Positions 11,575-32,000 of a DNA stretch of 32,000 nt are shown piece by piece. The notes beneath the pieces are model-generated. The model worked only from the letters and a program-made list of their open reading frames with translations. It ran no database searches and was not told where the DNA came from. The stretch covers positions 750,001 through 782,000 of the forward strand of contig LT962688.1 in assembly GCA_900234795.1 (NCBI GenBank). The letters are read 5' to 3'. Position 1 is the stretch's first letter. The number at the start of each line of letters is the position of its first letter. The stretch is from Methylorubrum extorquens. Lineage in GTDB: Bacteria > Pseudomonadota > Alphaproteobacteria > Rhizobiales > Beijerinckiaceae. A program made the translations under genes and the position numbers.

Positions 11575-12206
11575 ATGCAGGACATAGCGGCAAGCCTCGA
11601 ACGTGGACGGCCGAAGGATCTCGTCAGCGGCGCCCAGGTGCTTTCGGGTCAGCTCGGCAAGACGATCCAGCGTCTGCGCAAGGCCTACAACCTCTCCCTC
11701 TCCGAACTCGCCGAGCAATCGGGCGTGGCGAAGTCGATCATCAGCCAGATCGAGCGCAACGAGACCAATCCGACGCTGGCGACAATCTGGCGGTTGAGCC
11801 AGGCGCTCGACGTATCGATCGAGCGGGTGCTCGCCACCTCTGACGAAGAACCCTTCATCGAGCGCTTCTCGCGCGCCGACACACACCGCGGCTCGTCTCC
11901 GACGACGGCAAGGTGCGGCTGGCCATCATCGGCTGGATCAAGACCGTCGAGTGGCTGCAATGGTACGACGTCACCGCTGATGCCGGCGGCGTGCTCGAAT
12001 CCGACGCGCACCAGCGCGGCTCGGTCGAGTCGCTGTCCGTGCTGGAGGGCAGCTTCGAGGTGGATGTGGCCGGCGAAGTGCAGCGGGCGAATGCCGGCGA
12101 GACCCTGCGCTACCGCTGCGACCGCCCCCACAGCATCCGGTGCCTCGGCGACGCGCCCGGCCGCGCGACCATGGTCGTGATCATGAAGGCCGCCGTGATG
12201 GAGTGA
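11575..12206 (+). pseudogene. XRE-family HTH plus cupin-domain transcriptional regulator, frameshifted as sequenced
   Basis: The HTH part (LGKTIQRLRKAYNLSLSELAEQSGVAKSIISQIERNETNPTLATIWRLSQAL) is in ORF 11524..12180 up to ~11886. The cupin part (PRLVSDDGKVRLAIIGW...LESDAHQRGSVESLSVLEGSFEVDVAGE...YRCDRPHSI) is in the frame of ORF 11913..12206. The frame changes within ACACACCGCGG (11881-11891). This is consistent with a 1-nt loss in a C run or a 2-nt AC gain. The start is uncertain (11575 ATG or 11524 GTG). Confidence 0.75.
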
Positions 12207-12247
12207 TCCGGCGCCAGCCGCTCCCTTGTGGGCAGCGACATCGTACG

Positions 12248-12287
12248 AAAAAGGCCCCCGCCGCTCGCCAGCGACGGGGGCCTTTTT
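12248..12287. terminator. Bidirectional intrinsic terminator between the convergent XRE gene and the giant gene
   Basis: A5 (12248-12252), GGCCCCCG (12253-12260), loop, CGGGGGCC (12275-12282), T5 (12283-12287). A second 8-bp hairpin, GAGGCGGG/CCCGCCTC, lies at 12316-12346. Confidence 0.7.
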
Positions 12288-12361
12288 CATGGAGTAGCCT
12301 GGTCGATCGGGCCGTGAGGCGGGCCCGTTGACACCGAACCCGCCTCCTCCGACGTGAAGCC

Positions 12362-15300
12362 TCAGGCCTCGTCGAACCGGCCGCTGGCATGCGCAAGCAT
12401 GGTGTAGACCTTGCCCGTCTCCGAGGTGAGGTAGGCGTCCGCGCGCTTGGTGTCGCGATCGTTCTTCGTCACCTCGCCGAGCAGCCGCTCGAACTCGCCG
12501 ACATAGCGATCGACCGTGCGGCGGAACTCGGCATCCGCCCGGTAGCGGCGCTGGATCTGCTCGAAGGTCTGGCGCCCCCTGGACCGTGTAGAGGCGGCCG
12601 TCGAACAGGTTGGTGTCGCCCTGGCGGTAGCGCTGCCAGAACTCGACCGAGGCCTGATGATCCACCATCCGGGCGATGTCGGTCGAGATCGCGTCGAGCG
12701 AGATCCGCTCCACCGGCCCCTTCGCCTCGGGCGCGGCGACCGGAGCCGGGGCGGGGACCGCCTCGGCGCCGTCATCGTCGAGCGACGCGCGGGTCAGGAG
12801 ATCGGACAGCCAGCCGCGGTTGTCGCGGGTGCCGGGCCGCCCCTGGACCGGGCCGGGGACGGCGGCCGGGCTCGCCGGACGCACGGGGGCCGATGCCGGC
12901 TGAGACCGGCCCGCCGTCGGGGCCGCATTGCGGACCGGCGCAGGCGCGGAGACCGGTGCGGGCGCCGCCGCCCCCGACACGGCGCGGCCGGCCTCGGCCG
13001 TGCGGCGCTGCTCGGCCCCGCGGGCCTGCGCCGCTGGCTGGGCGACATCGACCGAGCGGTTCGAGCGGGCCACCAGGGCGGAGAGCTCGTTCAGCGCGTC
13101 GATCTGTTCGGCCACGACGCGACGCATCTCGCTCGTGGCATCCTGCGTCTCGCGGGGCAGGTCGAGAACGCCGCGCTGCAGGTCGGCGCGGGTGGCGTCG
13201 AGTTCGCGGCGAATCTCGGCGGCCATCGCATTCATCCGCGTGACCGAGTCGCCGAACTGGCCGGAGGCGGCGGCGAAGCTCTGCATCATCTTGGCGGAGG
13301 CCTCCTCGATGGCGCTGCGCACCGCTTCCGCCGTGCGGGCGCTCTCGGCATCCGCGCCGCTGCGCAGGCGCTCGAAGTCGCCCGCCACGGCGGTCCCGGC
13401 CTCGCGGGCCACGCGGGCCACGCTCTCGCTGAGTTCACGGGCGCGGGTCTCGGCCGCACGCAGCGTCTCCTCGATCACGCTGCCGAAGCGGCCGGTCTGG
13501 GCCTCGATGGCCTGGCTGCGCTCTTCGAGGCGGGACAGCACCGCCTCGACGACGGCCTGCCGGCTCGACAGGCTCTCGGCGAGACGGCCTTCGACCGCTT
13601 CCAGATTGCCGGCGGCCGCTTCGAGCGCGCCGACATAGGTGCCGGTGCGCTCCACCAGCGCCTTGCCGCGGGCATCCAGGGTCTCGGCGAGGCTGGACGC
13701 CTGGGCGAGTGCTCCCTGCGAGGCTTCGCGGAGCGCCACGACCTGGGTCGAGACCCGGTCGGAGGCCTGTGCCGTGTCGGCGGCGACCCGGTCGAGGGCC
13801 GACTGGATCTGCTCGACACGGGCCGCGAGCCCTTGCTCGATGGCACCGAGGTTCTCCGAGGCGCCGCCGACGAGGTCCTTCAGCCCGTCATTGGCGTGCT
13901 CGATCCGGGTGAGGAAGCCGGCGACGTCGCGGCGGACCCGCTCATGCGCCTGGGCGACGGTGTCGGCGGAGGCCGCCGCGCCCTCGTCCAGCGCGACGCG
14001 CAGGGCCTTGGCCGACTCGACGGTGCGGACGACGATGGCGTCGGTGCGCTCGCGCAGGGCCTCGACCAGCGGTGCACCCTTGTCGGCGATGAGCCGGTCG
14101 AGGGCCTGCTCCCGCTCGGCCAGGGCGTCGGCCAGGGCCGCGGCCGGTCCGTCGATCATGCGGGCCAGCGCGCCGTTGCGCTGATCCATCGTCTCGGCCA
14201 GCGCGTCGGCGCGGGCCTGGACCTCGGCCGCGTGACGGCGGGCGCGCTCCTCCAGCATCCGGCCCATCTGGGCGATGCCGTCGTCCACGAGCGCCGCGTA
14301 GGCGTTCTGGCGCTCGTCGAAGGTCTCCGCCAGGGCGGCCTGCCGCTCGGCACGCTCGTCCAGGGCCGCGACCATCCGGGCGGTACCGCCATCGATGAGC
14401 GCCGCGTAGGCCTCCTTCTGGCGGTCGAACGCCTCGGCCAGCACCGCGTGGCGGCGGGCCCGCTCTTCCAGTGCGGCGACCATGCGGGCGGTGCCCTGCT
14501 CGATCAGGGTGGCATAGGCGTCCCGCTGCCCGTCGAAGGCCTCGGTGAGGGCGGCCTGCCGCTGGGCACGCTCGTCGAGAGCCGCGACCATCCGGGCGGT
14601 GCCCTCCTCGATCACGCTCGCATAGGCATCGCGCTGCCCGTCGAGGGTCTCAGCGAAGGCGGCCTGCCGCTGGGCCCGCTCGTCGAGAGCCGCAACCATG
14701 CGGGCGGTGCCCTCCTCGATCAGCGCCGCGACGGCCCGCTGACGCTCCTCCACCGTCTCCGCCTGTGCGGCGTGGCGGCGCGCCCGTTCTTCGAGCGCGG
14801 CGACCATACGGGCGGTGCCCTGCTCGATCACGCTCGCATAGGATTCCCGCTGGCCGTCGAAGGCCTCGGCGAACGCGGCCTGCTGCCGGGCGCGCTCGTC
14901 CAGCGTCGCCGCGATCCGGGCGGTCCCCTCTTCGATCAAGGCGGCGACGGCCTTCTGGCGCTCCTCGACCGTCTCGAACTGGGCCGCGTGCTGGCGTGCG
15001 CGCTCATCGAGCGTCGCGACCATGCGGGCCGTGCCCCCGTCGATCTGCGCCGTGTAGGCGTCCTGGCGCTCGTCGAAGGCGTCGGCCAGCGCGTTGGCGC
15101 GGTTCGCCACCACGGTGGCGAAGGCGCGCAGGCGGGCGTCGATGCGGGCGGTGAAGTCCTCGCTGCGGGCCTCGACGGTCTGCGACAGGGTGGCCGCCTG
15201 GTTCTCCACAAGCCGGGCGAACTCGCCGCCGCGGCTCTCGACGAGCCCGTCGAGACTCCGCATCCGCTCATCGAACACCGTCGCCAGCGCCTGGGTCTGG

Positions 15301-18300
15301 GTCTCGAGGCGGCCGGTCAGCGCCGTCGAGCGCTCATCGACCAGGGCGCCGAGGGTGGCGTGGATCTCGTCGAACAGGGCGCGCAGCTCCTGCGACCGCC
15401 TTTCGACGGTCTGCGCGACCTGCTGGCCGCGCCCGTCCACGATGTCGCCGAGAACGCCGAGGCGCTCGTCGAACAGGTGGGCGAGCCCCCGCGTGCGGGC
15501 ATCGACCTCGCCGGCCGCGCGGCCGATGCCGCCTTCCAGCGTCTCCACGAACAGACGCGCGCCCTCGGTCAGCGCCGCCTGGAGCGGCAGGATGCGGCCC
15601 TGGAAGCCCTCGTCGAGGCGGCCGGCATGGCCGTCGAGCAGCCCGCGGATCTCGGCCGTGCGGTGGTCGAGGATGTCCTGAACCGTGCGGGCCCGCTCCT
15701 CCAGGGTGATGCGCAGATCATCGCTGCGGGCCTCGAGCATGGTGCGGATTTCGCCCGCGCGGCTGTCGAGCAGGTCCTGCACCGTGCGGGCCGGCTCCTC
15801 CAGGGCGGCGCGCAGGGCGCCGAGCCCGGTCTCGAACTCGCCACGGACATGGCCGGCGCTGCCATCCACGAGACCGCGCAGCTCGCCGGTACGGCTGTCG
15901 AGGGTGTTGCGGATCTCGGCGCTGCGGGCATCGAGCAACTCGCGCACCATGCGGATGCGCTCTTCCAGCGTCGTATCGAGGCTGCCGAGGCTCGCCTCGA
16001 ACGCGCCGCCGACCCGGCCGGAGACGTCTTCCATCAGGCCGCGCAGATCGTCGGTGCGGTGATCGAAGGTGTCGCGGATCTCGGCGCTGCGGGCATCGAG
16101 CAGGTCGCGCACCGTGCGGACGCGCTCCGCCAGCGTCGTGTCGAGGGCGCCGAGGCTCGCCTCGAACTCGTTGCGCACCCGTCCAGCACCGCCCTCCATC
16201 AGACCACGCAGGTCGTCGGTGCGGTGATCGAAGGTGTCGCGGATCTCGGCGCTGCGGGCGTCGAGCAGGTCGCGCACCGTGCGCAGGCGCTCGTCCAGCA
16301 CAGTCTCGAAGCTGCCGAGGCCGGCTTCGAGTTCGCCGCGCACGCGGCCGGCACTGCCTTCCATCAGGCCGCGCAGATCGTCCGCGCGGCTGTCGAGCAG
16401 AGTGCGGATCTCGCTCGCCTGGGTCTCGAAGGCGTGGCCGAGGCGGCCGGTGCCCTCGCCGAGCAGGCCGTCGACCTGTCCCATGAGGTCGCGCAGGGTC
16501 GCGAGCAAGGCGGTGCCGCGGCGGTCGAGCAGGGCGCCGAGCGAGGCGCCGCCCTGTTCCAGGGCCTGGGTGATGTCGGAGAGGCGTCCCTCAAGCCCTT
16601 CGACGGCCACGCGGCCGCGCTGGTCGAGGTCGGCGGCGAGCGCGCCGCCGCGCTCGTCGAACAGGTGGTTGAGGCTCTCGGCCCGCTCGTCGAACAGGCG
16701 GGCGATGGCCTCGACATGGCCGCCCAGCGCCTCGACGGCGAGACCGCTGCGGCGCTCCAGCAGGGCGACGAGGTCGCGGATGCGGCCGGTCAGCTCGCCG
16801 TCGATGGTGCGGGTGCGGCTCTCGATCAGGCGCACCGCTTCGAGCGCCTGGATGCCGAAGGATTCGTCGAGGTGGCGGGTGCGCTCCTCCAGCGTGCCGC
16901 TGAGGGCATCGAGGCGCGCGACCACGCCGGTATCGAGGCGCTCGGCGCCCTCGTCGAGGCGGCGGGCGAGATCCTGGGTCGTGCGCTCGAGCCGCTCGGC
17001 GATCTCGGCCGCGCGGGCGGCGAGAAGGTCGCCCACGGAGCGGCCACGGTCGGCGATGTCCTGCGCGGAGCCTTCGATGCGCCGGTCGAGGGCGTCAGTG
17101 AGGATGCGATTGCCCTCATCCAGCGTGCGGGCGATCTCGGAGCTGCGCAGCACCAGCGCCTCGTTGAGGGCATTGGCGCGGGCACCCAGCCGCGTGTCGA
17201 CATGGCCGACGAGGGCTGCGAAGCTCTCGCCGATCTCGGCGGCGCGACGGGCCGAGAGGGATTCCATCTCGCCGATGCGGGCCTCGACGGTCTCGCTGGC
17301 AAGGCGCGCACGCTCGGCCAGGGAGTCGGCGAGCGCATTGCCCTGCACGGCGATGATCCGGTCGATCTCGGTGAGGCGCGAATCCAGGGTGTCGCCGAGC
17401 GTCTGCGCGTTGCCGGCGATCCGGTCGGCGAGGATGTCGCCGCGGGCGATGGTTTCCTGCAGGGCGGCGAGCCGGTTGCCGAGGGCCTCCTCCACCGCGC
17501 GGGTGCGGCTGTCGGCGGTCTCGACGAAGGCAGCGTGGCTCCGGTGCAGCGTGTCGCCGACCTGCGACACATGGCCGGCAATGGCGAGCACGACCTCGCG
17601 GCTGGCGCCTTCGAGGCGGGCCTGGGCCTCGTCGGACTGGCTGGCGATGAGCGCGGCGGCGCCGCGGCCGTGACGGCCGAAGCTGTCCTCCAGAGTTCCC
17701 AGGCGGGTCTCCAGCTCGGTGCCGACGTCCTCTGCGGTGCGCGACAGCGCCAGCGTCGTGGCCTCGCCGCGGGCGGCAACCTCGTCGCCGAGCCGGCGCA
17801 GCGTCTCGCGCAGGGCCTCCAGGGCGCTCTCGGTGCGGCCGCCGACCTCGCCGCCGGCCTGTTCGGCCGCACGGGCGAGGGAAGCGGTGGCCTCGGCGCT
17901 GCGGGCCGACAGCTCGTCGCCGATCTGGGCCAGGGCGTCGCGCAGGCTGCGCAGCGACGCCTCGGTGCGGCTGTTGACCTCGCCGCCAGCCTGCTCGGCC
18001 GCGCGGGCCAGGGCCGCACTGGTCTCGGCGCCGCGGGTGGACAGCTCCTCGCCGATCCGGCCTAGCGTCTCACGCAGGCTCCGCAGCGATTCCTCAGTGC
18101 GCGCACCGACTTCGCCGCCGACCCGCTCGGCGGTCCGCGCCAGCGCGTCCGTCACCTCGGCGCTGCGGCCGTCGATCTCGTTCTGCACCTGCCGCAGCAG
18201 GTCGCGCAGACCCTGCGCCGACTGGTCGGCACGGCTGCCGATCTCGCCGCCGGCCTGAGCCGCCGCCAGCGACAGGGCGACGCTGGCCTCCGAGCCGCGC

Positions 18301-20759
18301 ACGGAGATCTCGTCGGCCACCTGCCGCAGGAGATCCTGAAGCGCGTGCATCGACTGGTTGGTGCGGTTGTCGATCTCGCCACCGGCATGGGCGGCGGCGA
18401 GCGCCAGGGCGCCGGTCGCCTCGGCGCTGCGGGCCGACAGCTCGTCGGCCATCCGCTGGATCGCGGCGTGAAGGGCCTGCGACGCGCTCTCACTGCGGCT
18501 GCCCAGCTCGCCCCCGACGCGGTCGGCGGCGGCCTGGAAGCGGCCCACCACGTCGTCCGAACGGCTCTCGACGGCGGCGGCGGCCTCGTCGGCCGCGCGG
18601 CGCAGCGCCTCGGCGGCTTCGGCGAAGCGGGTGGTGACGGCGGCGCTCTGCGCCTGCGCGGCCCCCGAGGTCTCCTCGGCAACGTGCAGCATCCGCGCGG
18701 TCGATTCCACGGCGCGCTCGGCGAGCAGGTCGCTCATGGCCTCGGCGGCCTCGCGCAGACGGCGCTCCAGCGCTTCGACGCTCGCGCCGACGGACGCGGT
18801 CGCGGTCTCCGCGTTGCGGCGGATGCCGTCCTGGGCAGCGCCGGTGCGGGCATCGAGATCCTGGCCCAGACGGGCCACGGTCTCGCCCAGGCTCTCGGCG
18901 GTGCCGTTCGCGTTCGCGGCGAAGGAGGCGCCGAGCCCGGCCAGAGCCTGCTCGACGGTGGCGGCGGCCTGCGCCGCCCGCTCGGTCATCAGGCCGACGA
19001 CCCGTTCGCCCGCCGTGTCGAGGTTCGAGGCGAGCGCCCCGCCCTGGACGGCGATGACATCATCGACGCGGGACGCCGCCGCCTCGATGCGGGCGGCGAG
19101 TTCGAGACCGCGGCCGTCCATGGTCTCGGCCGCGCGGGTGGCGGACGCCAGGAACGCGTCGCGGACCCGGTCGATGCGGGTGGAGAAGTCGTCGGCGACG
19201 CTGCCGGCGGCAAGCGCCAGGGCGGCCTGCGCGTCACGCCCACGGCCCTCGATCAGTTCGGAGACGCCGGTGCCGGCGGCCTCGATCTCGGTGCGCAGCG
19301 AGGCGCCGCGAACGGCGATGTCCTCGGAGATCGCCGCGCCGGTGGCGGCGAAGTTGCGGCTCAAGCCCTCGCCGGTCTCGGCGAAGCGGGCGGTGATCGC
19401 GCCGCCGGTCTGAGCGAAGCGCTCGGTCAGCTCGGTCCCGCGCGACAGGAAGGCCTCTTCCAGGCCCCTCGTCGAGCGCTCGAAGGTCTCGCGCACGGCG
19501 CCGCCCTGGCGGTCGAGCGCCTCGATCAGGCCGGTGCCGGTCTCGGACAGGGATTGGGCGACGGCGCCCGCATTGTCGGCCAGCGTGCGGGTGAGCGCCC
19601 CGCCGGTGCGCTCGAAGGCCTGCGTCACCTCGTCGGCGCGCTGCTGCAGTGCGCTGGTAAGGGTGGTGCCGATCTCTTCCAGGCCGCCGCGCACGCCTTC
19701 GCTGGTGGCGGTGAGCTGGCGGACGAGGTCGTCGCCGCGGGTCGAGACGTTTCCGACCACCCGTTCGCCGACCTCGCCGAGCGCTTCGGTGATCGCGGTG
19801 CCGCGGGCATCGAGCGCCCCGGTCACGCGCTCGCCCGCGCCGTTGATGGCGGCCACGATGCGCTCGGCCGCGCCCTCCAGCTCGCTCGACAGGTTCTCGT
19901 GCGAGCCGGCGATCGCGCCGCGCACCCGGTCGGCGCTGCCGACGATGGACTCGCGCTGGGCGATCAGCTCATCGACGAGGCTGCGGATGCGGATCTCGTT
20001 ATCGGAATAGGCGCGCTCCAGGGTCGAGATCTCGCCGCGCACCAGCGTTTCGAGTTCGCCGGCGCGGGCGAGTGCCCGCTCCACGCCGTCGCCGACGGCC
20101 GCGACTTCGCGGCGCACGGTCTGCGACATGGTCAGTACCGCGTCGGTCGAGAAGCTCTCGGGCTCGGCCAGCCGGATCGCCACCTCGCCGACGGCGCGGG
20201 CGACGAGGCGCATCTCGTGGGCGCGCACGGCCAGCATCGCCGTGATGAGGAACAGCACGATCGGCCCGGCGATGGCGGTAGCCACCACCGCCGCCTGAAG
20301 CGCGGTGAGCCCGGTGATGAACGTCTTCAGATCGCCGCCGGACTGGTTCCAGGCGAGCGCCACGAGACCGTTGAGCCACAGGAACGAGGCGATGGCCGCG
20401 ACGAGGTACGGCTTGCGCGAGGGCCGCACCCGGAGCGTCTGCTGCAGGATGCCGATGTTCTGGCGGTCGTCGTTGGCGACCAGCGAGCGGTCGGGCGGCA
20501 GAAGCCCGCCCTCGCGGCGCGAGCGCCCCCGCTCGGGCAGCGGCAGATCAGAGGCGGCGGGATCGATGTCGAGGGTCGGGGTGCGGCGTCCCCCGGCCTC
20601 GGAGAACGGATCGGCCAGCGGATCGCTGTCGCCGACATCGGGCAGCCGCGGCTCGACGCGGGCGGTGTCGCCCGGTGCCGGAATGTCCAGATTCAAAGCC
20701 TGCTCGATCGCGGAGAGGGCCGCCTCTGCCGGATCCTTCAGCTTCTTCTCGGTGGCCAT
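12362..20759 (-). CDS. Giant (~2,798 aa after frame repair) membrane-anchored helical-repeat protein, GPR/RgsE-like; one frameshift near the 3' end as sequenced
   Basis: Tracked as ORF 11685..20948. The best start is the ATG at 20759 (MATEKKLKDPAEAAL), with GAGGG just upstream. Two predicted TM helices sit near the N-terminus (PYLVAAIASFLWLNGLVALAW and LQAAVVATAIAGPIVLFLITAMLAV). These are followed by >2,000 aa of Ala/Glu/Arg-rich repeats, a Pro/Ala linker and a globular C-terminal domain. The frame breaks at the C5 run 12575-12579. The sensible end (...LYTVQG | RQTFEQIQRRYRADAEFRRTVDRYVGEFERLL...HASGRFDEA*) is in ORF 12362..12775. The 11685..12574 tail of the tracked ORF is junk that crosses a terminator and the XRE gene. 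Confidence 0.85.
14172..15035 (-). repeat. In-frame tandem repeat array, 108 nt / 36 aa, 8 units (GTARMVAALDERA.RQAA.AE.FD.QR.AYA..IE.)
   Basis: The CAT triplets encoding the Met of GTARM recur at 14265, 14373, 14481, 14589, 14697, 14805 and 15021; the unit at 14913 encodes Ile instead. Spacing is exactly 108 nt. Confidence 0.9.
15645..16412 (-). repeat. In-frame tandem repeat array, 165 nt / 55 aa, 4 units plus one 33-aa unit (LLDARSAEIRDTFDHRTDDLRGLMEG.AGRVR.EFEA.LG.L...L.ER.RTVRD)
   Basis: The anchor GCGGAT[CT]TC (EIR codons) occurs at 15744, 15909, 16074, 16239 and 16404, exactly 165 nt apart, plus 15645 (99 nt). About 60 nt are nearly identical between the units at 16056-16118 and 16221-16283. 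Confidence 0.9.
17592..18515 (-). repeat. In-frame tandem repeat array, 132 nt / 44 aa, ~7 units (GGE[VIL]..R[TS]E.S...L...L..[IL]..E[LI]S.R..E....L...A...)
   Basis: The anchor GA[CT][CT]TCGCC[GA]CC recurs at 17844, 17976, 18108, 18240 and 18372, with degenerate copies at 17712 and 18504. Spacing is exactly 132 nt. Confidence 0.9.
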
Positions 20760-21092
20760 GCAACCCTCGTACGCATCGCCGTCCATTGCAGAGCTCGCGC
20801 CCTCCGCAATGGAGACGGATTTACCCGACGTCTCACGGGATCTTAGTCCCTCGGATGATGCCCCCGATACCCGATCGGCCCGGCGCACCCAAGAAACCTT
20901 AACGGAATGGTTACCAAGCCGGGTCCCGTGATCCGGCATTCGCCCCAAGTTCTGACGCTTGCAGCCTTAAACGGGTACGCCCCGGCGCGCCCTGCGCTGT
21001 GGATAGCCGGCGCCACCCACAGGCAGGTCGCCGCGCCGAGCGCTTTGACCCAGAACCGGGCGGATGGAGCGGTCGTTTCATCCCGAACAACG

Positions 21093-24954: not shown

Positions 24955-25690
24955 GGATCGATGCCGCGTTGGCGGAGTCATCGGACTCCGCTGGCCGGCT
25001 CCGATACGGCGGGTCGATAGGGTCTGCGCAGTCGAAGCCCGGGCCGATCGCAAGGCCGCCGGGCCGGCCGACCGCTCTCAATGCGTCGCAGGAAGGCTTG
25101 CAGACGCAGCGGCAGCGCTTCGCTGCTCGCGCGCTCTATTCGCTGACGGCCTGTGTAGCCCTCTGCTCACCGCAGACGCACTCACAAGGCGCCGCGTCCC
25201 GATGCGGCCTGCGCCATCTCGCGAAGACGGGCTCCCCCAGAGACAGGCCCCGCGAGCCAGTCGCATTCAGCTCGGCGGGCTTCGTCCAACGTCGGATTTT
25301 CGCGACGGGACGCCCACGTGGTTTCCAGCTTCCGGCAAGGCTAATCAGAGGTTCGCGTTCGCGCAACGACCCCGACATGATCAAGAGTCGGTACGTCGGC
25401 CCCACGGATACGATCGGGCTGCCTCCGAAGCGTCCTTCAGGGCATCGTCCGGCCCGGAGTCCGACGGCTTTCAGCAATCGACGCTACGAGATTCGAGACC
25501 CCAACCACGGTCTTGACCGGAACCCGCTGCACGGAAGCAGATACGGGTCCGAGACCGTAAAGCGGGCCGTATCACCAAGTCCCGTAAGTCGGACCCGTCT
25601 GCCCATCATCGGGCAAACCGCTCGGCCTTTACCGCATCCGTCGCCACCGTTTCGATGGCGAGACGGTTCCGGCGTCCTTCGAGCCAACAA

Positions 25691-26425
25691 TCAGGCGTCG
25701 GGCATCGCCGACTGGATGAGACGGTCAGAGGACAGATCCTCCTCGTCATACCCGAGGAGTTCGGCGAGACGGCCGCGGGCGCGGCTGACGCGGCTCTTCA
25801 CCGTGCCGACCTTGCAGCCCATGATGGTCGCGGCCTCCTCGTAGGAGACGCCCTCGGCGCCCACCAGCACGAGGGCCTCGCGCTGGTCCGGCGGCAGCTT
25901 GGCGAGCGCCGTCTGCAGATCCTCGACATCGAGCCGGTCGCCCTGATGCGGCGCGGTCGCGAGGCGGGCGGCGTAGGAGCCGTCCTGATCCTCGACCTCG
26001 CGCACGCGCTTGCGGTGATCCGAGTAGAAGATGTTGCGCAGGATCGTGAAGAGCCACGCGTTGAGGTTCGTGCCCGGCTGGAAGCGGGCGCGGTGCTGCC
26101 AACCCTTGAGCAGGGTGTCCTGCACGAGGTCGTCGGAGCGCGCGGGGTTCGAGGTCAGCGACAGGGCGAAGGCGCGCAAGGACGGCACCGCGGAGAGCAG
26201 GCCGTTGCGGAATTCGGGATCGATCCGCTCGCCCTGCGCCTTGAGGGCCGCTTCGAGCTTGCCGATCAGTTCGGAGAAGCGGGACGGTGTGTCCTCGCCC
26301 GCGCCGAGCGTGTCGTACACGCTGCGCAGATGATCGCCGAGATGGCTGCGGATTGAGTCGGAAAGTTTGGGACGGCCGTCTGTCATCGCGGGACGATCCA
26401 GGGTCGCTTCGGTATCGTTACGCAT
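25691..26425 (-). CDS. ECF sigma factor (EcfG/SigT-like) with a ~65-aa NepR-like N-terminal extension
   Basis: ORF 25691..26506, with the start taken at the ATG at 26425 (MRNDTE..., GAAGAG upstream). Region 2 reads DDLVQDTLLKGWQHRARFQPGTNLNAWLFTILRNIFYS. Region 4 reads LPPDQREALVLVGAEGVSYEEAATIMGCKVGTVKSRVSRARGRL. The N-terminal segment LGDHLRSVYDTLGAGEDTPSRFSELIGKLE follows the NepR pattern. Confidence 0.85.
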   Translation of the reverse strand: MRNDTEATLDRPAMTDGRPKLSDSIRSHLGDHLRSVYDTLGAGEDTPSRFSELIGKLEAALKAQGERIDPEFRNGLLSAVPSLRAFALSLTSNPARSDDLVQDTLLKGWQHRARFQPGTNLNAWLFTILRNIFYSDHRKRVREVEDQDGSYAARLATAPHQGDRLDVEDLQTALAKLPPDQREALVLVGAEGVSYEEAATIMGCKVGTVKSRVSRARGRLAELLGYDEEDLSSDRLIQSAMPDA

Positions 26426-26672
26426 CGGGCTCTTCGCGATCGGGACTTTTCGGCAATGCCGGCGCAGTGCCGCACACGGGGCAGGCCCCGGCACGGCCCT
26501 TAACATAGTTGTAGCGCATCGGCCCGATCACGCACACCCGCGCCACGCGAAATACTGCCACGCTTGCACACCAGACGGTAGTCTGTCGCCCGAAGAGTGA
26601 GATGATTCGCCGATCCTGCCGCTTGAATGCGGCAAATCGGCAGGCCCCTCCGCCTTTCCCGATCGATCGCCC

Positions 26673-27495
26673 TCAGACCGCGCCGTGGATCTCCGGCATC
26701 GGCCGCGCGCGCCGCCGCGTCGCGCCCTTCCGCACCCGCACCACCCCGTCGGTGAGAACGAGGGTGTCGCCGCGCTCCAGTTCGGTCCACGTCTCGTCCC
26801 GGGTCAGCGCCCGCGTGGCGATCATGGTGACGATATCGGTCTCGGTGGTCTCCTGAGCGAAATCGACCCGCCAATCCTCGTCGATCAGCGTCGCCGTGCC
26901 GAACGGCGCCCGGCGGGTGAGGTAGCAGAGCCGCTTGCCGCAATGGGCGTAGAGCACGCGGCTGTCGGAAAGCAGCATGTTGAACACGCCGCGCTCCGAA
27001 AGGATGAGGGCGTAACCCGCAATCGCCGCCTCCAGGGTCGCGGCGCGGGGCGGCTTGGGGAAGCGCTCCTGAAGCTGCGACAGCATCCAGCAGAAGGCGT
27101 GTTCGCTGTCGGTGGTGCCGACCGGCTCGAACCGGCCGAGCGGCAGCCGCTTCACGCCCTTGAGCTGGCCGTTATGGGCGAAGGTCCAGCGCCGGCCCCA
27201 CAGCTCGCGGGAGAAGGGGGTGGGTGTTCTCCAGGCTGACGCGCCCGCGATTGGCCTTGCGGACATGCGCGACGACGATGCGGCTCTTGATCGGATAGCG
27301 GCGCAGGAGCTTGGCGAGTTCGGAGCGGGCGCTGGGCTCGGGATCGTGAAAGGAGCGGCAGCCGCGCCCCTCGTAGAAGGTGATGCCCCAGCCGTCGGCA
27401 TGCGGGCCGGTCTCGCCGCCGCGCCGGGCCAAAGCCGCGAAGGAGAAGCGGATATCGGTCGGCACATTCGCGCTCATTCCGAGCAGTTCGCACAT
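26673..27495 (-). pseudogene. yafJ: Class II glutamine amidotransferase, YafJ-like, frameshifted as sequenced
   Basis: [19 protein letters not shown]...[10 protein letters not shown]...[20 protein letters not shown] is in ORF 27172..27579. The continuation [18 protein letters not shown]...TDSEHAFCW...GVFNMLLSD...TRRAPFG is in ORF 26673..27467. The frames join if one G is removed from the G5 run at 27216-27220. Confidence 0.8.
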
Positions 27496-27553
27496 GGTGG
27501 CCGGGGTCTTCTGCGTCGCGCGCGGTAGGATCGAGAGAGGCGGGGAGGGGAAA

Positions 27554-28784
27554 CTAGGAAGCTTCGGGGGGAGGAACAACCGATTTGCGGTGCATGTCCC
27601 CCGCCGCCGCGCCCGGTCTCCCGCGCGCGCGCTCGCGGCCCGGCCAGACGGGGGTGACGGCGAGACCCGGAATCAGGCGGCGGACCGCGGGCGCCAATCC
27701 CAGGGCGAGCCCGATCATTCCCGCGAGCGCCAGAAGGTCGGTGAGGCCGACGCGGAAGTGGCCGCGGAAGGCGGGCGTGACGAACCAGAACAGTTCGGCG
27801 AGATGGACCGCGACGGCGAGCGCCGCCACCAGCCGCGTGCGGTTCTCGCCGGGACGCAGGGTCAGGATGGCGGCCAGCCCCACGACGACGGCCGCGGACA
27901 GCGCCAAGGCGCGGCCGGAAAAGCCCGCGCGCAACCGGTACCACGCGGCGGCCCCCCGGATCGGCGGCGGCGCCGAGCATCAGGAACTGCACGACGTGCA
28001 GGCCGGCCCAGACGAGCAGCAGCACGGCGAGCGGCGTGAGCCGATCGTGCCGGCGCCGGGCAGGCCCGGCATCGGGCGGCGCGACGAGGATCGCGGCGGC
28101 GAGCGCCAGACTCGACCACGCCGCCAGCACCAGCAGGCCGAAGGCGCTGGCATGGAAGCGCTGGCCAGGATCGGTTCCAACCGACATGACGAGATCGTCC
28201 GCGGCCAACGTGCCGACCACGGTGTGGAGGCCGAGGCCGAGCACAGCCCGCCCGTCGTCGATCCGGCCAGCCTTGGCCCAGGGCTCGCCGCCGCGGCGGG
28301 CGAAGAGCAGGGCGAGCCCGGTCCAGAGCGCGAAGTAGAGGGCGAGGCGGGCGGCGAGCAGCGGCGGCGCGGCCCCGAACAGGGCGAGCGGGCCATCCGG
28401 CCCGGCGCTATCCGGCGCCGGGTAGAGCAGGAAGGCGGCCACCGGGATCGGCAGAGCGAGGATCGCGGCCACCGGCATCAGCACGAGCAGGCCGCGCAGG
28501 GTCTCCAGCAATGCGGTCTCGGGCTGCGGGCGCCACGCATCGGCCCGCTCGATCATGATGACGACGGGCAAAGCACCCGCCGGCAGCGCGAGGAGGCAGG
28601 TCCAGGCGGCGAGATAGGACGGCGCGAGCCGGGGCAGTCCGGCATGGTGGAACGCCAGCAGCAGGCAGGCCAGTCCGGCCGCGAAGGCCGCTGCCGGGCG
28701 GCGGGCCGGATCGCGGAAATAGGCGCTGGCGGATTTCGCCCCCGTCGCCTTGCGGGCGGCGCCGCCCTTCTCCTCCGCGCTCAC
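27554..28784 (-). pseudogene. Polytopic membrane protein resembling ActF of Alternative Complex III, degenerate, frameshifted as sequenced
   Basis: The GTG start at 28784 overlaps the upstream stop (GTGA). The body lies in ORF 27474..30575 down to ...LLVWAGLHVVQFLMLGAAADPG, and continues (AAAWYRLRAGFSG...HLAELFWFVTPAF...) in ORF 27554..27934. The frames join if one C is removed from the C6 run at 27952-27957. QFLMLGAAADPGAAAWY aligns with my recollection of the ActF signature QF[LM]LIWY.N.PEE..Y[FY]. Confidence 0.55.
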
Positions 28785-30709
28785 CGCTGCGGCTCCCCGG
28801 CGGCGAGGCCGTACAGGGCGAGGGGACGTCCCGCATCCGTCGGCAGGGCGTTGAGGCGCCGGGCGAGGGCCGCCGGAATGAACGGCGCGCCGGAGGGCTC
28901 GATCGTCAGCACGAAATGTCCGGCGAGGGCGGAGGGGGGGAGGCGGCCGACCTGCCCGGCTCTCACAACGGACAGGAGCGCGACCGCAAGGCCGAGCACG
29001 CCGCCCGCCGCCGCCGCGGAGAGAGCTGGCACCGCCGCCATGGCCCAGGATAACGGCCACGCGGCCGGCCAAGGCGTTGGCCAAGCGGTCGACCAGGAAT
29101 TGGGCCAGGAATCGGGCCAAGAGAGCGGGCGGGCGAGGAGTGCCGCCACGCTCGCCGGCCCGTCCGGCATGTCCCCGGCAAGGCCCACGATGCGGATGGC
29201 GAGGAAGGCCGCAAATCCGAGAAAGGCACCGAACAGGGCGAGGCGGTTCAGGCTTCGCTCCTCCCGGTGCAGGGCAGCGGCGGCCTCCGGCATCGGCACC
29301 GGACCGAAGGCGTCGAGGCGCGGCGCGCGGGGCCCCGAGAGCCCACGCGCCGCCTCGGCCAGCCCGGCCTCCGAGGCGAAGATCGCGATGAGGCCAGGGG
29401 GCTGGCCGGGGGGTTGGGCAAGGGGCTGCACGGCGAACGGGCCCGGCCGGGCGTCCGGCGCGGTCTCCGGCACCCGCGGCGCGGCGTCCGCGTTCTGGGC
29501 GAGGGCGAGTTGGCGTGTCTCGGCGATTCCGACCGGCGGCACGAGACGGAAAAGAAGCAACAGGCCGAGGACGAACAGCCCAGCGGAGCCCAGCGTCGCG
29601 ATCCCCGCGGTCAGGAGATCCGCCAGGGCCGCCCCCGTCGCCCCGATCCGCGTGGCGAGCACATGATCCGCACCGAGGCCGACGGCGACGAGGGCGCCGA
29701 TCAGGCCGAGGGCGAGGGCGCTGCGGCGGATGGCGGGGATCCAGAACAATTGCGTGGGGAGAAGCCCGGCGAGCATGAGTATCCAGAAGGCGGGCGCCTC
29801 GTCGCCGAGGAGCCGGCGCGTCAGGCGCGCCCGCTCGGCCGCGTCGCCGTAGAGAAGGGCGGTGACGATCTCGGTGACGTGGCAATAGAGGGCGGCCAGG
29901 CCGAAGGCGAGCAGTAGCCGCCCCAGGATGTCGAGGTGGCGGCCGGTGATGAGGCCGTCGAGCCCGCGGCCTCGGCGCAGGGTCATGGCGAGTGCCGCGA
30001 TCAGCCCGGCGCCCGAGAGCACCGCCTCGACCAGCAGGGCGACCGGAAGCAGGGTGTCGTGCCGGTCGGTGCGAAGGGCGGCCGCCAGCGCGAGGTCGAT
30101 CAGCACCGCCACCGCCGCGAGAATGCCGAGCAGGCCGAACCCCCGGCAAGCCCGCTCCCAGGCGAGCCATTGCAGCGCCGAGCCGCACCAGCCGGCGGAG
30201 AGCGCTCGGTAGAGGCGGGCGCGTCGGCGATCCGGCCCCGCGGCGTCGCGCAACACCGCCAGATCTGGCAGGAGCGGCGCCGCCCACAGGCCGAGGCTCG
30301 CCAGGAGCAAGGCCCCGAGGCTCACCGGATGGACCGGCACCGGATAGAGCGCAGCGAGACCCGCGCAGAGCAGGGCAGCGGTCTGTGTCAGGCGGCCGAT
30401 TCCGCAGCGCCAGGCCACGCCCGCGAGTAGCAGCAGCCCCGAGATCAGCAGGCACCCCGCGGCGAGCCCGATCCACCACGCGGCGGCGGCCGGACCGAAC
30501 GCGGCCGGCACGGTCGAGCGCAGACCGGCCCAGACGAGGATCGGGACGAGCGTTCCGGCAACGGCGAGCCACCAAAGGCGGCCGGCCGGCGCGAGCACGC
30601 TCCCCGCGAGCGCGGCAGCGATCGAGGTGACCGTCTCGTCGGGCCCGATCACCGGCGCGCCGTAGAGGGGAACGGTCTCGGCGGCAGGTGGAAACGCGCG
30701 TTCGGTCAT
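28781..30709 (-). CDS. Fusion of an NrfD/ActC-like membrane domain and an ActD (DUF3341)-like domain (642 aa)
   Basis: Internal ATG at 30709 of ORF 28781..31102 (MTERAFPPAAETVPLYGAPVIGPDETVTS...). PLLPDLAVLRDAAGPDRRRARLYRALSAGWCGSALQWLAWE matches my recollection of the ActC signature LLPDFAMLRD......Y..LS.GW.GS...W..FE. The C-terminal part LIAIFASEAGLAEAARGL...LDAFGPVPMPE...RLALFGAFLGF...HFVLTIEPSGAPF follows the DUF3341/ActD layout. Confidence 0.6.
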   Translation of the reverse strand: MTERAFPPAAETVPLYGAPVIGPDETVTSIAAALAGSVLAPAGRLWWLAVAGTLVPILVWAGLRSTVPAAFGPAAAAWWIGLAAGCLLISGLLLLAGVAWRCGIGRLTQTAALLCAGLAALYPVPVHPVSLGALLLASLGLWAAPLLPDLAVLRDAAGPDRRRARLYRALSAGWCGSALQWLAWERACRGFGLLGILAAVAVLIDLALAAALRTDRHDTLLPVALLVEAVLSGAGLIAALAMTLRRGRGLDGLITGRHLDILGRLLLAFGLAALYCHVTEIVTALLYGDAAERARLTRRLLGDEAPAFWILMLAGLLPTQLFWIPAIRRSALALGLIGALVAVGLGADHVLATRIGATGAALADLLTAGIATLGSAGLFVLGLLLLFRLVPPVGIAETRQLALAQNADAAPRVPETAPDARPGPFAVQPLAQPPGQPPGLIAIFASEAGLAEAARGLSGPRAPRLDAFGPVPMPEAAAALHREERSLNRLALFGAFLGFAAFLAIRIVGLAGDMPDGPASVAALLARPLSWPDSWPNSWSTAWPTPWPAAWPLSWAMAAVPALSAAAAGGVLGLAVALLSVVRAGQVGRLPPSALAGHFVLTIEPSGAPFIPAALARRLNALPTDAGRPLALYGLAAGEPQR

Positions 30710-31122
30710 CGGCTCAACGGTCGGCCGCAGGCTGCGCGCGACTTCGATCCTGAAGGACAAAGGCGGGCGATGGTGTGTCTCGCACGGCCATCCGGTCTCG
30801 TCCGAAGGGAGGGTGGGGAAGGGCGCTGCCGAACGGGATGGCTGGGAAATGCGGGAAAGGCTGGCCCTCCGCCCACGGACTCGAACGCGGATCGCCCGCC
30901 ATGTGCTCTCCCGCACCAAAGAGCAATGCCGCGGCGGGAATGCAATGCGACGCGCCGGCCGCGCGGGCTTGCGCCGCGGCGTTTCCGTGCGAAGAGGACG
31001 ATCCGTGACGGCTTCCTCACGCGCCAGCCCGCCGGATCGTCCTTCACAGCGCCGAAACCGTTCTCCGATGCCGCACCCCACCGCCGCGAATTCGTCGGCC
31101 ACGGCTTGGCCGGGCGCCCGGA

Positions 31123-32000
31123 ATGCCGATGGAGCGTGATCCCGTCCTGTTCGCCTGGGCCTCGTCGCCGCGTCGGCACGCGGCGGCGCTCGCGCTGGCG
31201 GTGGGCTTCGGCGGACCGCTGGCGCTGTTCGTGCTGCTGTGCCTGCGCGACCTCATCGCGGTGCTGACCCGCAGCAGCCCGGACTTCCTGCCCTTCCTGC
31301 GGATCGCCCTGCCGCTGCCGGGCCATCACGGACACGAAGCGCCGATCCTGTTCCCGGGCTGGAGCCTGCCGCCGACGGAACTGCCGCTGATCGCGCTGAC
31401 TTCGCTGGCCGCCGCAGCCCTGCTGCTGGCCGCCCTCGGGGCCGCGGTCGCGTATCTCTGCTTCTCCGTCCAGGCCCGGGCCACGGCGCGGCTGCGGGCG
31501 CGGGCCACCGAAGCGATCCTCGCCTCGCCGCCCGGTGCCCGCGAGGATCTCCGGGCGCTGCCCGGCCTCGTCGGCCAAGCGCTGGCGCGGATGGGCCCGC
31601 TCGCGGCGGTCGGCATCGTCGTGCCCGGCCTGACGCTCGCCGCGATCCTGCTGGCCCTCGTCATGGCGGAACTCGCGGCCCCGCGCCTCGTGCCGGTGAT
31701 CGCGCTTTTGCTCGCTGCCGTCGGGCTGGCGCGGGTCCTGCTCGCCAGCCGCACCGCCGCCCGGCGCAGCCTGCGCCTCGCCGACACTGCCGCGACGGAG
31801 GCGGGCCTGCGCGACCTGATCCGGCGGATGCCGGCGGTGCGCGCCCACGGGGCGGCGGCGTTCGAGCGACGCCGCCTGGGGCTGCGGGCACGGGCGGCGC
31901 GCAGCGCGCTGGTACGGGCCGAGGCCCGGCTCGCCTATGCGCGGGCCCCGGCGCTCGCGCTTGTCGTGATCCTGCCCGCCCTCCTCGTCGCCACCGCCCT
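31123..32000 (+). CDS. ABC exporter, N-terminal transmembrane domain; the 3' end runs off the window
   Basis: Not in the ORF track because there is no stop in the window. My translation from the ATG at 31123/31129 reads MPMERDPVLFAWASSPRRHAAALALAVGFGGPLALFVLLCLRDLIAVL... It has several hydrophobic helices, Arg-rich loops and strong G/C third-position bias. The 380-aa minus-strand ORF 30706..31848 is its antisense shadow. Confidence 0.5.
   Translation, partial: MPMERDPVLFAWASSPRRHAAALALAVGFGGPLALFVLLCLRDLIAVLTRSSPDFLPFLRIALPLPGHHGHEAPILFPGWSLPPTELPLIALTSLAAAALLLAALGAAVAYLCFSVQARATARLRARATEAILASPPGAREDLRALPGLVGQALARMGPLAAVGIVVPGLTLAAILLALVMAELAAPRLVPVIALLLAAVGLARVLLASRTAARRSLRLADTAATEAGLRDLIRRMPAVRAHGAAAFERRRLGLRARAARSALVRAEARLAYARAPALALVVILPALLVATA

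Follow-up and report, generated by a model that had tools for sequence, protein, structure and literature searches.

The locus described here raises the question of why a bacterium would keep membrane subunits of a respiratory complex when no electron-carrying partner is encoded beside them. The DNA is a 32,000-nucleotide stretch of the Methylorubrum extorquens TK 0001 genome (contig LT962688.1, positions 750,001 to 782,000 of the forward strand), referred to as the window. Near its end lie two coupled minus-strand genes, here called g1 and g2 (Table 1). A reading made without database searches, the sequence-only reading, had assigned g1 as a fusion of ActC and ActD and g2 as ActF, subunits of Alternative Complex III (ACIII). 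It had left the pair as either a relic of ACIII or a module recruited for a new membrane role. The two genes are the ActC-ActD and ActF membrane module of ACIII, and both are under purifying selection. The pair is a relic of ACIII, and sequence comparison suggests that it may have a new role as well.

Identity of the two proteins

The M. extorquens record for the g1 product (SOR27462.1) is titled 'membrane protein of unknown function'. Among Pfam models, only ActD (PF11821) matches this protein, at amino acids (aa) 439-506 and just above the threshold (26.8 bits against a cut-off of 25.7). The NrfD model (PF03916) gives no match to g1 at E-values up to 1; it scores 63.8 bits on the relative L092, which belongs to a full operon. 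The ActC part is recognized by pairwise, Protein Data Bank (PDB) and fold comparisons only. Residues 131-428 match the ActC chains of four ACIII structures, 6f0k_C (8e-30), 8k9e_C, 6btm_C, and 6lod_C. The C-terminal part matches the ActD chain 8k9e_D by sequence (E-value 0.0026) and by fold. From the secondary structure of the model, this ActD-like domain is composed of a cytoplasmic beta-alpha-beta part and two transmembrane helices.

The AlphaFold2 model of g1 is of moderate confidence, with a predicted local distance difference test score (pLDDT) of 70 and a predicted template modelling score (pTM) of 0.77. In Foldseek searches, its best matches are ActC chains, with target-normalised template modelling (TM) scores of 0.74-0.76, followed by ActD 8k9e_D.

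The g2 protein has no match in Pfam or NCBIfam. A profile built from its relatives matches ActF chain 6f0k_F at 9e-35 and also the ActF chains of 6lod, 8k9e, and 6btm. Its fold is taken from the AlphaFold2 model of P0040, a protein 98% identical to the g2 of strain L001 (pLDDT 84, pTM 0.85). The top five Foldseek matches of this model are ActF chains and cover all four solved ACIII complexes. Models of both types contain two four-helix bundles without a cofactor. They superpose on the ActC and ActF chains; their superposition on PsrC (2vpw_C) is weaker. The assignment to ActC, ActD, and ActF made from the sequence alone is thereby upheld, and the published structures are matched in fold.

Origin from a complete operon

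Loci were surveyed with an ActF scan of one genome per species, and the gene content of the resulting 76 loci was typed by tblastn. Distant relatives of g2 are found in operons with the order ActA-ActB-ActC(D)-ActE-ActF-ActG-COX2-COX1-COX3-COX4. Most Methylobacterium species have the order YkuD, an 867-aa ABC-type protein (ABC867), the full operon, the glutamine amidotransferase GATase_4, and PhyR. At least 40 loci from Methylobacterium and related bacteria carry the full ActA-B-CD-E-F-G-COX2-1-3-4 operon flanked by ABC867 and by GATase_4/PhyR. The GATase_4 and PhyR-like genes downstream of g2 in the window also come after the full operon at L006.

All Methylorubrum species have ABC867, g1, g2, GATase_4, and PhyR. 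Because relatives have an intact operon between the same flanks, the pair is a relic and was not assembled from scratch. The same two genes, and no others of the operon, are retained in the gnaphalii group, which is made up of M. gnaphalii, M. sp. C25, M. brachythecii, M. haplocladii, and M. thuringiense. In M. organophilum, ActF alone is retained and g1 is gone. This ActF gene (L028, 9671-11098) is located 317 bp from ABC867 and is an intact open reading frame (ORF) of 369 aa, with degraded cytoplasmic motifs (ERLDLW; KRADAPFGRGGGLDDARA). The ActF-only locus may be a later stage of reduction.

The fusion of ActC and ActD is real, as the sequence-only reading had it, and is not special to the orphan pair. 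Fused proteins of 664-679 aa with both Pfam domains are already present in full operons of the same family, and the fusion is therefore ancestral.

No other part of the operon was recognized at the reduced loci. Searches of their intergenic DNA for remnants of actA, actB, actE, actG, and cox gave only noise (tblastn, E-values up to 5). ActA and ActE have no tblastn match in the window or at any reduced locus, and with locus typing there is no actA, actB, or actE at the window locus. The 4-nt overlap of g1 and g2 leaves no space for actE between them. The pair thus stands, as had been claimed, without a haem, Fe-S, or molybdopterin-type partner at the locus, and its neighbours are the divergent ABC867 and the YafJ-like GATase_4. 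Each Methylorubrum genome gave one locus in the ActF scan.

One copy is cut short. The g1 of M. zatmanii LMG 6087 (L017, 1-60) runs off the contig, whose terminal ~60 nt are unrelated and low in GC; an insertion element or a break in the assembly could account for them. An apparent stop codon in this g1 falls in the unrelated sequence and was discarded.

Probable recurrent reduction to the same genes

Neighbour-joining trees (200 bootstraps) were built from two or three flank genes. With ABC867 and GATase_4, singly and combined, the full-operon locus L092 is the sister of the gnaphalii-group orphans in 200/200 replicates. A tree in which all orphans are monophyletic was obtained in 0/200. The topology (L096 pair, (L092 full operon, gnaphalii-group pair)) has 100% bootstrap support. 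Since a full-operon lineage is nested among reduced ones and Methylorubrum forms another branch, the operon appears to have been cut down to the same genes independently at least three times, namely in Methylorubrum, in L096, and in the gnaphalii group. Further reductions may be represented by M. organophilum and L098. A single ancestral loss was the initial reading and was dropped once L092 and L096 placed a full operon among the reduced lineages.

The N-terminal extension of g2 is 13 aa long in Methylorubrum and 18 aa long in the gnaphalii group, and M. organophilum has none (0 aa); these lengths point to different breakpoints for the deletion of actE. The periplasmic WSANLP motif of ActF and the quinol loop of ActC have also decayed differently in each lineage, in agreement with independent events.

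Three of the loci have features of their own. At L092, GATase_4 (11-829) lies upstream beside ABC867 and a TonB-dependent receptor gene follows cox, so that the flanks are rearranged. L096 (6163-9113) is a reduced pair on a metagenome or read-archive contig, with a 613-aa g1 that has no Pfam match. L098 (1899-5161), also a reduced pair from such a contig, has a 703-aa g1 and an ActF with WSANLPE intact.

Loss of the quinol site and decay of the periplasmic loops

Residues of the ActC quinol site and of the proton path were taken from Calisto and Pereira (PMC8076601, Table 2) and Sousa et al. (PMC5928083), and the numbering is that of Rhodothermus marinus. In ActC from full alphaproteobacterial operons, His139, Ser164, and Asp169 are kept in all sequences aligned there (19/20). 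In Methylorubrum g1, a 29-aa deletion takes out the quinol loop, leaving 7 aa in place of 36, and removes His139 and Ser164. The alignment at Asp169 is ambiguous (H/D/R). At Asp253 the Methylorubrum sequences have a 2-residue alignment gap, and even the full alphaproteobacterial operons have Met there. The first periplasmic loop of the ActC part is shorter by about 13 aa, and the last periplasmic loop is trimmed too. The suspicion that the ActC half was shortened is therefore confirmed by the alignments, and the signature residues of the pair are degenerate, as had been claimed.

Decay is concentrated on the periplasmic side. In full operons, the periplasmic loops of ActCD are the best conserved part, with a mean identity of 0.80. 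In g1, the same loops are the worst conserved part, at 0.44 within Methylorubrum and 0.21 between Methylorubrum and the gnaphalii group. The ActD part has a 10-aa periplasmic loop in full operons ('GGRPRFSW') and a 36-aa insert rich in Trp and Pro in the window. This low-complexity insert, 'PLSWPDSWPNSWSTAWPTPWPAAWPLSW', contains a 12-nt tandem repeat at 29093-29119 and is seen in the extorquens and aminovorans lineage only.

Erosion differs between species. M. haplocladii and M. thuringiense have kept the quinol loop, Ser164, and Asp169, and have Pro at His139; the g1 of M. gnaphalii is more eroded than theirs. The Pfam ActD score is graded, at 111 bits in the full operon L092 and then 54, 29.6, and 26.8, and the NrfD model matches the full form only.

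ActF has also changed on this side. Its periplasmic WSANLP.E motif has decayed differently in each reduced lineage, and the P-side glutamate Glu301 is lost in the pair. The sequence-only reading had an IWY.N.PEE-type motif of ActF replaced. Intact relatives do read 'LGAAADPGAAAWY' at WSANLPEE..WY, but the window itself does not literally encode 'LGAAADPGAAAWY', owing to a frameshift described below.

With the quinol loop deleted and the periplasmic docking loops decayed, the pair can no longer oxidise quinol, as judged at the level of sequence. A retained proton channel was considered and is unlikely, as half-channel residues are kept inconsistently across the reduced lineages. ActC Glu326, ActF His355, and ActF Glu358 are missing from the gnaphalii group, and ActC Glu122 is Gln in 17/17 Methylorubrum sequences.

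A separate observation concerns the complete alphaproteobacterial ACIII operons (L003, L006, L033, and others). These have Met at ActC Asp253, Gln at ActC His247, and Ser at ActD Glu122, all positions reported as >95-98% conserved in ACIII. This branch of ACIII may couple quinol oxidation to proton movement differently.

The pair could still handle quinol or translocate ions if electron-transfer partners, ACIII-like or NrfD-type, were encoded in trans. NrfD-like subunits serve many Fe-S and catalytic partners (PMC8076601), and the charged cluster on the cytoplasmic side of the ActC part is kept in g1 (Arg114, Arg119, Asp191, Arg196, and Asp197). The deletion of the quinol loop, together with the absence of two to three of the four quinol-site residues, argues against such partners, as do the inconsistent half-channel residues. 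Conservation within the protein is lowest in the periplasmic loops that contact ActB, and a second ActF locus is not present in any Methylorubrum genome scanned. Among the 120 best ActB relatives, there is no named entry from the reduced clade, in a search that did not take in whole genomes. On this evidence, partners in trans are unlikely.

Retained cytoplasmic face of ActF

The cytoplasmic side of ActF has been kept. Between Methylorubrum and the gnaphalii group, identity in its loops N1-N4, whose sidedness was assigned from R. marinus N-side residues, is 0.79-1.00. Among other full-operon Methylobacterium species, identity in these columns is 0.34-0.53. Four loop motifs are recognized: ERADAWRPQPE; RRGGEPWGKAGRIDDGRA; PPDxGPxRRRxDRLT; and (R/K)PGE(N/Y)R(T/A)R. 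Originally, these motifs were considered to have arisen after the loss of the partners. This was dropped because the full operons L092 and L094 of the same clade already have all four, and the motifs are therefore older than the reductions.

The two proteins have diverged to different extents. Relative to outgroups, orphan ActF is about 1.2 times as diverged as the ActF of L092 and L094, and g1 is 2-3 times as diverged as their ActCD. The best-kept parts of g1 are transmembrane helices 6 to 8 and the cytoplasmic segments.

Purifying selection on both genes

Ratios of nonsynonymous to synonymous substitution rates (dN/dS) were calculated by the Nei-Gojobori method (NG86). They are 0.25-0.57 for the g1/ActCD gene and 0.12-0.38 for the g2/ActF gene. 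The medians over 15 Methylorubrum loci are 0.44 (g1) and 0.28 (g2), and the closest Methylorubrum pair gives 0.25 and 0.12 (Fisher p ~1e-19). Close pairs of the gnaphalii group give 0.18-0.29 for g1 and 0.14-0.17 for g2. For comparison, the values for ActCD and ActF are 0.33 and 0.30 in full-operon Methylobacterium species, and 0.33 and 0.32 between L092 and L094, both of which are full operons. The flank genes of Methylorubrum give 0.26 (YkuD), 0.19 (ABC867), 0.09 (GATase_4), and 0.05 (PhyR). Values well below 1 in both genes and in two separately reduced lineages do not favour drift.

The reading frames point the same way. Every complete copy of g1 and g2 examined has a single frame, except g2 in the window. 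Neither gene has an internal stop in 15 Methylorubrum species, and all 58 distinct gap blocks in the Methylorubrum g1 alignment are in frame, over a range of g1 lengths from 578 to 670 aa. The 4-nt stop/start overlap is present in all genome-derived pairs and in the metagenome locus L096; the exception is L098, with a 23-nt gap. Open frames are weak evidence because the DNA is so GC-rich, and a wrong-frame ORF of 1033 aa spans the same DNA as the pair. The argument is carried by the patterns of substitutions and indels.

The exception in the window is most probably an assembly error. A G6 run splits g2 over two frames (+1 frameshift), and the literal translation reads '...LGAAADPGGRRVV...'. 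Past '...LMLGAAADPG', the frame continues as 'GRRVVPV...'; the remainder, 'AAAWYRLRAGF...PPPEAS' and a stop (end 27554), is in another frame. The sequence-only reading had taken g2 as a single ORF, which fails for the window, as its peptide passes over one base at G6.

Strain L001, 97% identical, has G5 and an intact 409-aa g2. Five short-read assemblies of the same strain as the window show 0 mismatches to it, and all have G5; for this reason, the frameshift is judged an artefact of nanopore homopolymer reading or of assembly. Four of the five (5.6-6.2 kb) span a second site as well and differ from the window at these two sites alone, where the window has one extra base in a homopolymer; the fifth (4.4 kb) covers the first site only. 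The second insertion, C5 at ~27216 against C4 in the four assemblies, frameshifts the YafJ-like GATase_4. The 5.71-Mb TK 0001 genome (LT962688) was assembled from Nanopore reads with Illumina polishing (PMC5824006), and the two insertions together suggest residual nanopore errors in the source assembly.

Whether the pair consists of two slowly decaying pseudogenes, with frames that stay open only because stops are rare at 72-75% GC, can be judged from these results. Long spurious ORFs are numerous in the window, the 1033-aa one among them, and g1 shows the marks of decay in its divergence from outgroups, its stepwise fall in Pfam score, and its loss from M. organophilum; the window copy of g2 is frameshifted besides. 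Neutral decay does not account for the low dN/dS of both genes, for a constraint on g2 equal to that on ActF in full operons, for indels that are in frame in 58/58 cases, for the preserved overlap, or for ActF cytoplasmic loops that are invariant across reduced lineages, and the frameshift is missing from short-read assemblies of the same strain. It is quite improbable. Intact operons in relatives had been taken in advance as a sign of mere local decay; such operons were found, and local decay is contradicted by dN/dS, by the frames, and by the recurrence of the reduction.

That the frames are kept for a non-protein reason, such as read-through to GATase_4/PhyR or an overlapping antisense gene, is barely credible: the spacing between g2 and GATase_4 is only 51-272 bp, a 693-aa antisense ORF runs across 27585-29666, and no promoter or terminator was identified, but sense-frame dN/dS is far below 1 where read-through would not constrain amino-acid changes, G+C content at second and third codon positions fits the sense frame (0.56-0.58 and 0.88-0.90) over the antisense ORF (0.69 and 0.84), and GATase_4 lies on the other side of the operon in L092, so that the linkage is not fixed.

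Proposed role of the pair

The probable reading, with real room for doubt, is that g1 and g2 are a membrane module of an ACIII-caa3 operon that was stripped of its redox parts, is held under selection, and acts through its cytoplasmic face. ActA, ActB, and ActE, which are all the cofactor carriers, have been lost together with ActG and the linked oxidase genes. ActCD and ActF would still form a pseudo-symmetric membrane heterodimer, as in the ACIII structures. The heterodimer would serve a redox-independent role by way of its membrane core and cytoplasmic face. This role probably predates the loss of the redox subunits and goes back to the stage at which ActF gained the four cytoplasmic loop motifs, and such a timing would explain why the same genes survived each reduction. 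The conservation pattern favours a docking site or scaffold, to which a partner in the membrane or the cytoplasm would bind, over a proton channel.

A more specific proposal is tentative and falls a little short of an even chance. It holds that the ancestor shared by Methylorubrum and its sister Methylobacterium lineages had an ActF that, with help from ActC-ActD, gained a second, redox-independent function by way of its new cytoplasmic loops, and that this function explains the repeated stripping to exactly these genes.

Several points weigh against a selected module with a cytoplasmic role. The cytoplasmic scaffold is proposed from conservation patterns. The motifs predate the loss and may stabilise the ActCD-ActF-ActD assembly without marking a second function. 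With its 2-3 times greater divergence than full-operon ActCD and its absence from M. organophilum, g1 may be partly on its way out. Synonymous rates from NG86 are rough in a genome with 72-75% GC and biased codon usage. The trees are neighbour-joining trees on few flank genes, and L092, L094, L096, and L098 are metagenome or read-archive contigs. The search for partners covered the locus and close relatives of ActB, and a distant Fe-S partner elsewhere in the genome is possible. Expression, proteomic, or knockout evidence for g1 and g2 was not found in the open-access and bioRxiv literature.

Relation to known systems

ACIII and its subunits are already well described, with solved structures from Rhodothermus marinus, Flavobacterium johnsoniae, Roseiflexus castenholzii, and Chloroflexus aurantiacus (6F0K, 6BTM, 6LOD, and 8K9E/9ILT). 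The pair is homologous to ActC, ActD, and ActF of this complex, with two NrfD-like ten-helix subunits and a two-helix ActD with a cytoplasmic beta-alpha-beta domain. Unlike ACIII, it has no ActA, ActB, ActE, quinol loop, Glu301, or WSANLP, and its periplasmic loops are degenerate. With the missing subunits and quinol loop, it cannot be a quinol:cytochrome c oxidoreductase.

The full operon of Methylobacterium has been described as a 'COX operon type a-I attached to an Act/Nrf-like cluster' (PMC4013037). The pair shares its chromosomal position, the ActC-ActD fusion, and the 4-nt coupling of cistrons, and L092 and L094 share the ActF motifs. In contrast to this operon, the window has no actA, actB, actE, actG, or coxBACD, and its ActCD is 2-3 times as diverged.

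Described members of the NrfD/PsrC family (PF03916) have a periplasmic or cytoplasmic Fe-S subunit as partner, and all but ActF bind quinone (PMC8076601). The pair resembles them in its eight core helices, arranged as two four-helix bundles, and in having no cofactors. It differs in that it has no adjacent gene for an Fe-S partner and no quinone site, and the Pfam model misses g1.

The antiporter-like membrane subunits shared by complex I and Mrp are another instance in which homologues of the membrane module of a redox pump are maintained without the redox arm, and transport by Mrp has been demonstrated. They are an analogy only, with no homology to the pair, and residues of the proton path are inconsistently kept in the pair.

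No description of an ActCD-ActF pair without its partners, or of its recurrent origin, was found in open-access papers and bioRxiv. NCBI already labels g1 as 'ActD' or 'DUF3341'.

Features of the window

The coordinates of the locus are given in Table 1. The 642-aa frame of g1, the stop/start overlap, the missing act genes, and the two neighbours are all as the sequence-only reading had placed them.

Table 1. Positions of the g1-g2 locus and its flanks in the window.
Feature	Position	Strand	Basis or remark
g1, ActC-ActD fusion, 642 aa	28781..30709	-	Translation; exact match to SOR27462.1
ActC-like (NrfD-fold) ten-helix membrane domain, g1 aa 1-405	29495..30709	-	Alignment with 6f0k_C/8k9e_C; helix pattern of model
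Quinol-loop remnant, g1 aa 121-127	30329..30349	-	Alignment; residue list of PMC8076601 Table 2
ActD-like (DUF3341) domain, g1 aa 438-642	28784..29398	-	PF11821; 8k9e_D by sequence and fold
Trp/Pro-rich insert, g1 aa 514-549	29063..29170	-	Alignment; model pLDDT <50 here
g2, ActF orthologue, 409 aa without the extra G	27554..28784	-	Profile match to 6f0k_F; Foldseek
GTGA stop/start overlap, g1 TGA and g2 GTG	28781..28784	-	Translations; couples translation of g1 and g2
G6 homopolymer shifting the g2 frame	27952..27957	-	G5 in all other assemblies checked
Intergenic region between g1 and ABC867, 419 bp; presumed promoter site	30710..31128	.	Divergent gene arrangement
Start of ABC867, 867-aa ABC-type protein	31129..32000	+	Flanks full and reduced loci alike
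GATase_4, YafJ-like class-II glutamine amidotransferase	26673..27497	-	Downstream flank; frameshifted by C5 at ~27216

Few regulatory signals were recognized. Neither a sigma-70-like promoter nor a convincing terminator was found around the pair, and there is no EcfG/PhyR-type promoter (GGAAC-N15-18-CGTT) near g1 or g2. Rfam families have zero matches in window positions 25000-32000.

Upstream of g1, a block of ~45 nt lies within 30880-30960 ('...GCATTGCTCTTTGGTGCGGGAGAGCACATGGCGGG'). It is invariant in the extorquens, aminovorans, rhodesianum, and thiocyanatum lineages, with GCATTGC twice close by, and both full operons and the more distant Methylorubrum species lack it. The block could be a regulatory site specific to this subclade. 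Conservation of a 31-nt block upstream of g1 is likewise limited to the extorquens subclade, and no claim is based on it.

Elsewhere in the window, a minus-strand ORF of 3087 aa (11688-20948) contains about 10 repeats of the Apolipoprotein A1/A4/E type (PF01442, 241 bits) and a match to ApoLp-III. For a bacterial protein built of amphipathic-helix repeats, this is very large. Its L001 homologue has no recorded Pfam match.

Significance

Annotation of this locus is affected in two ways. The NCBI name for g1, 'quinol:electron acceptor oxidoreductase subunit ActD', overstates what the locus is capable of, and the reference genome seems to carry homopolymer frameshifts here.

As an example of recurrent reductive evolution the locus is a clean one: what is left of the respiratory complex is a remnant without cofactors that is under selection. 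ActF is the sole NrfD-like subunit with no quinone site or settled role, and proton pumping has been suggested for it in the ACIII structure papers (PMC5928083 and PMC8076601). It is retained under selection, usually with ActCD, after the loss of all electron-carrying subunits and the oxidase. Methylorubrum extorquens offers a natural and genetically tractable background in which the membrane module of ACIII is present alone. If a second function of ActF is real, the long-unexplained role of this subunit would be open to separate study in a tractable model organism.

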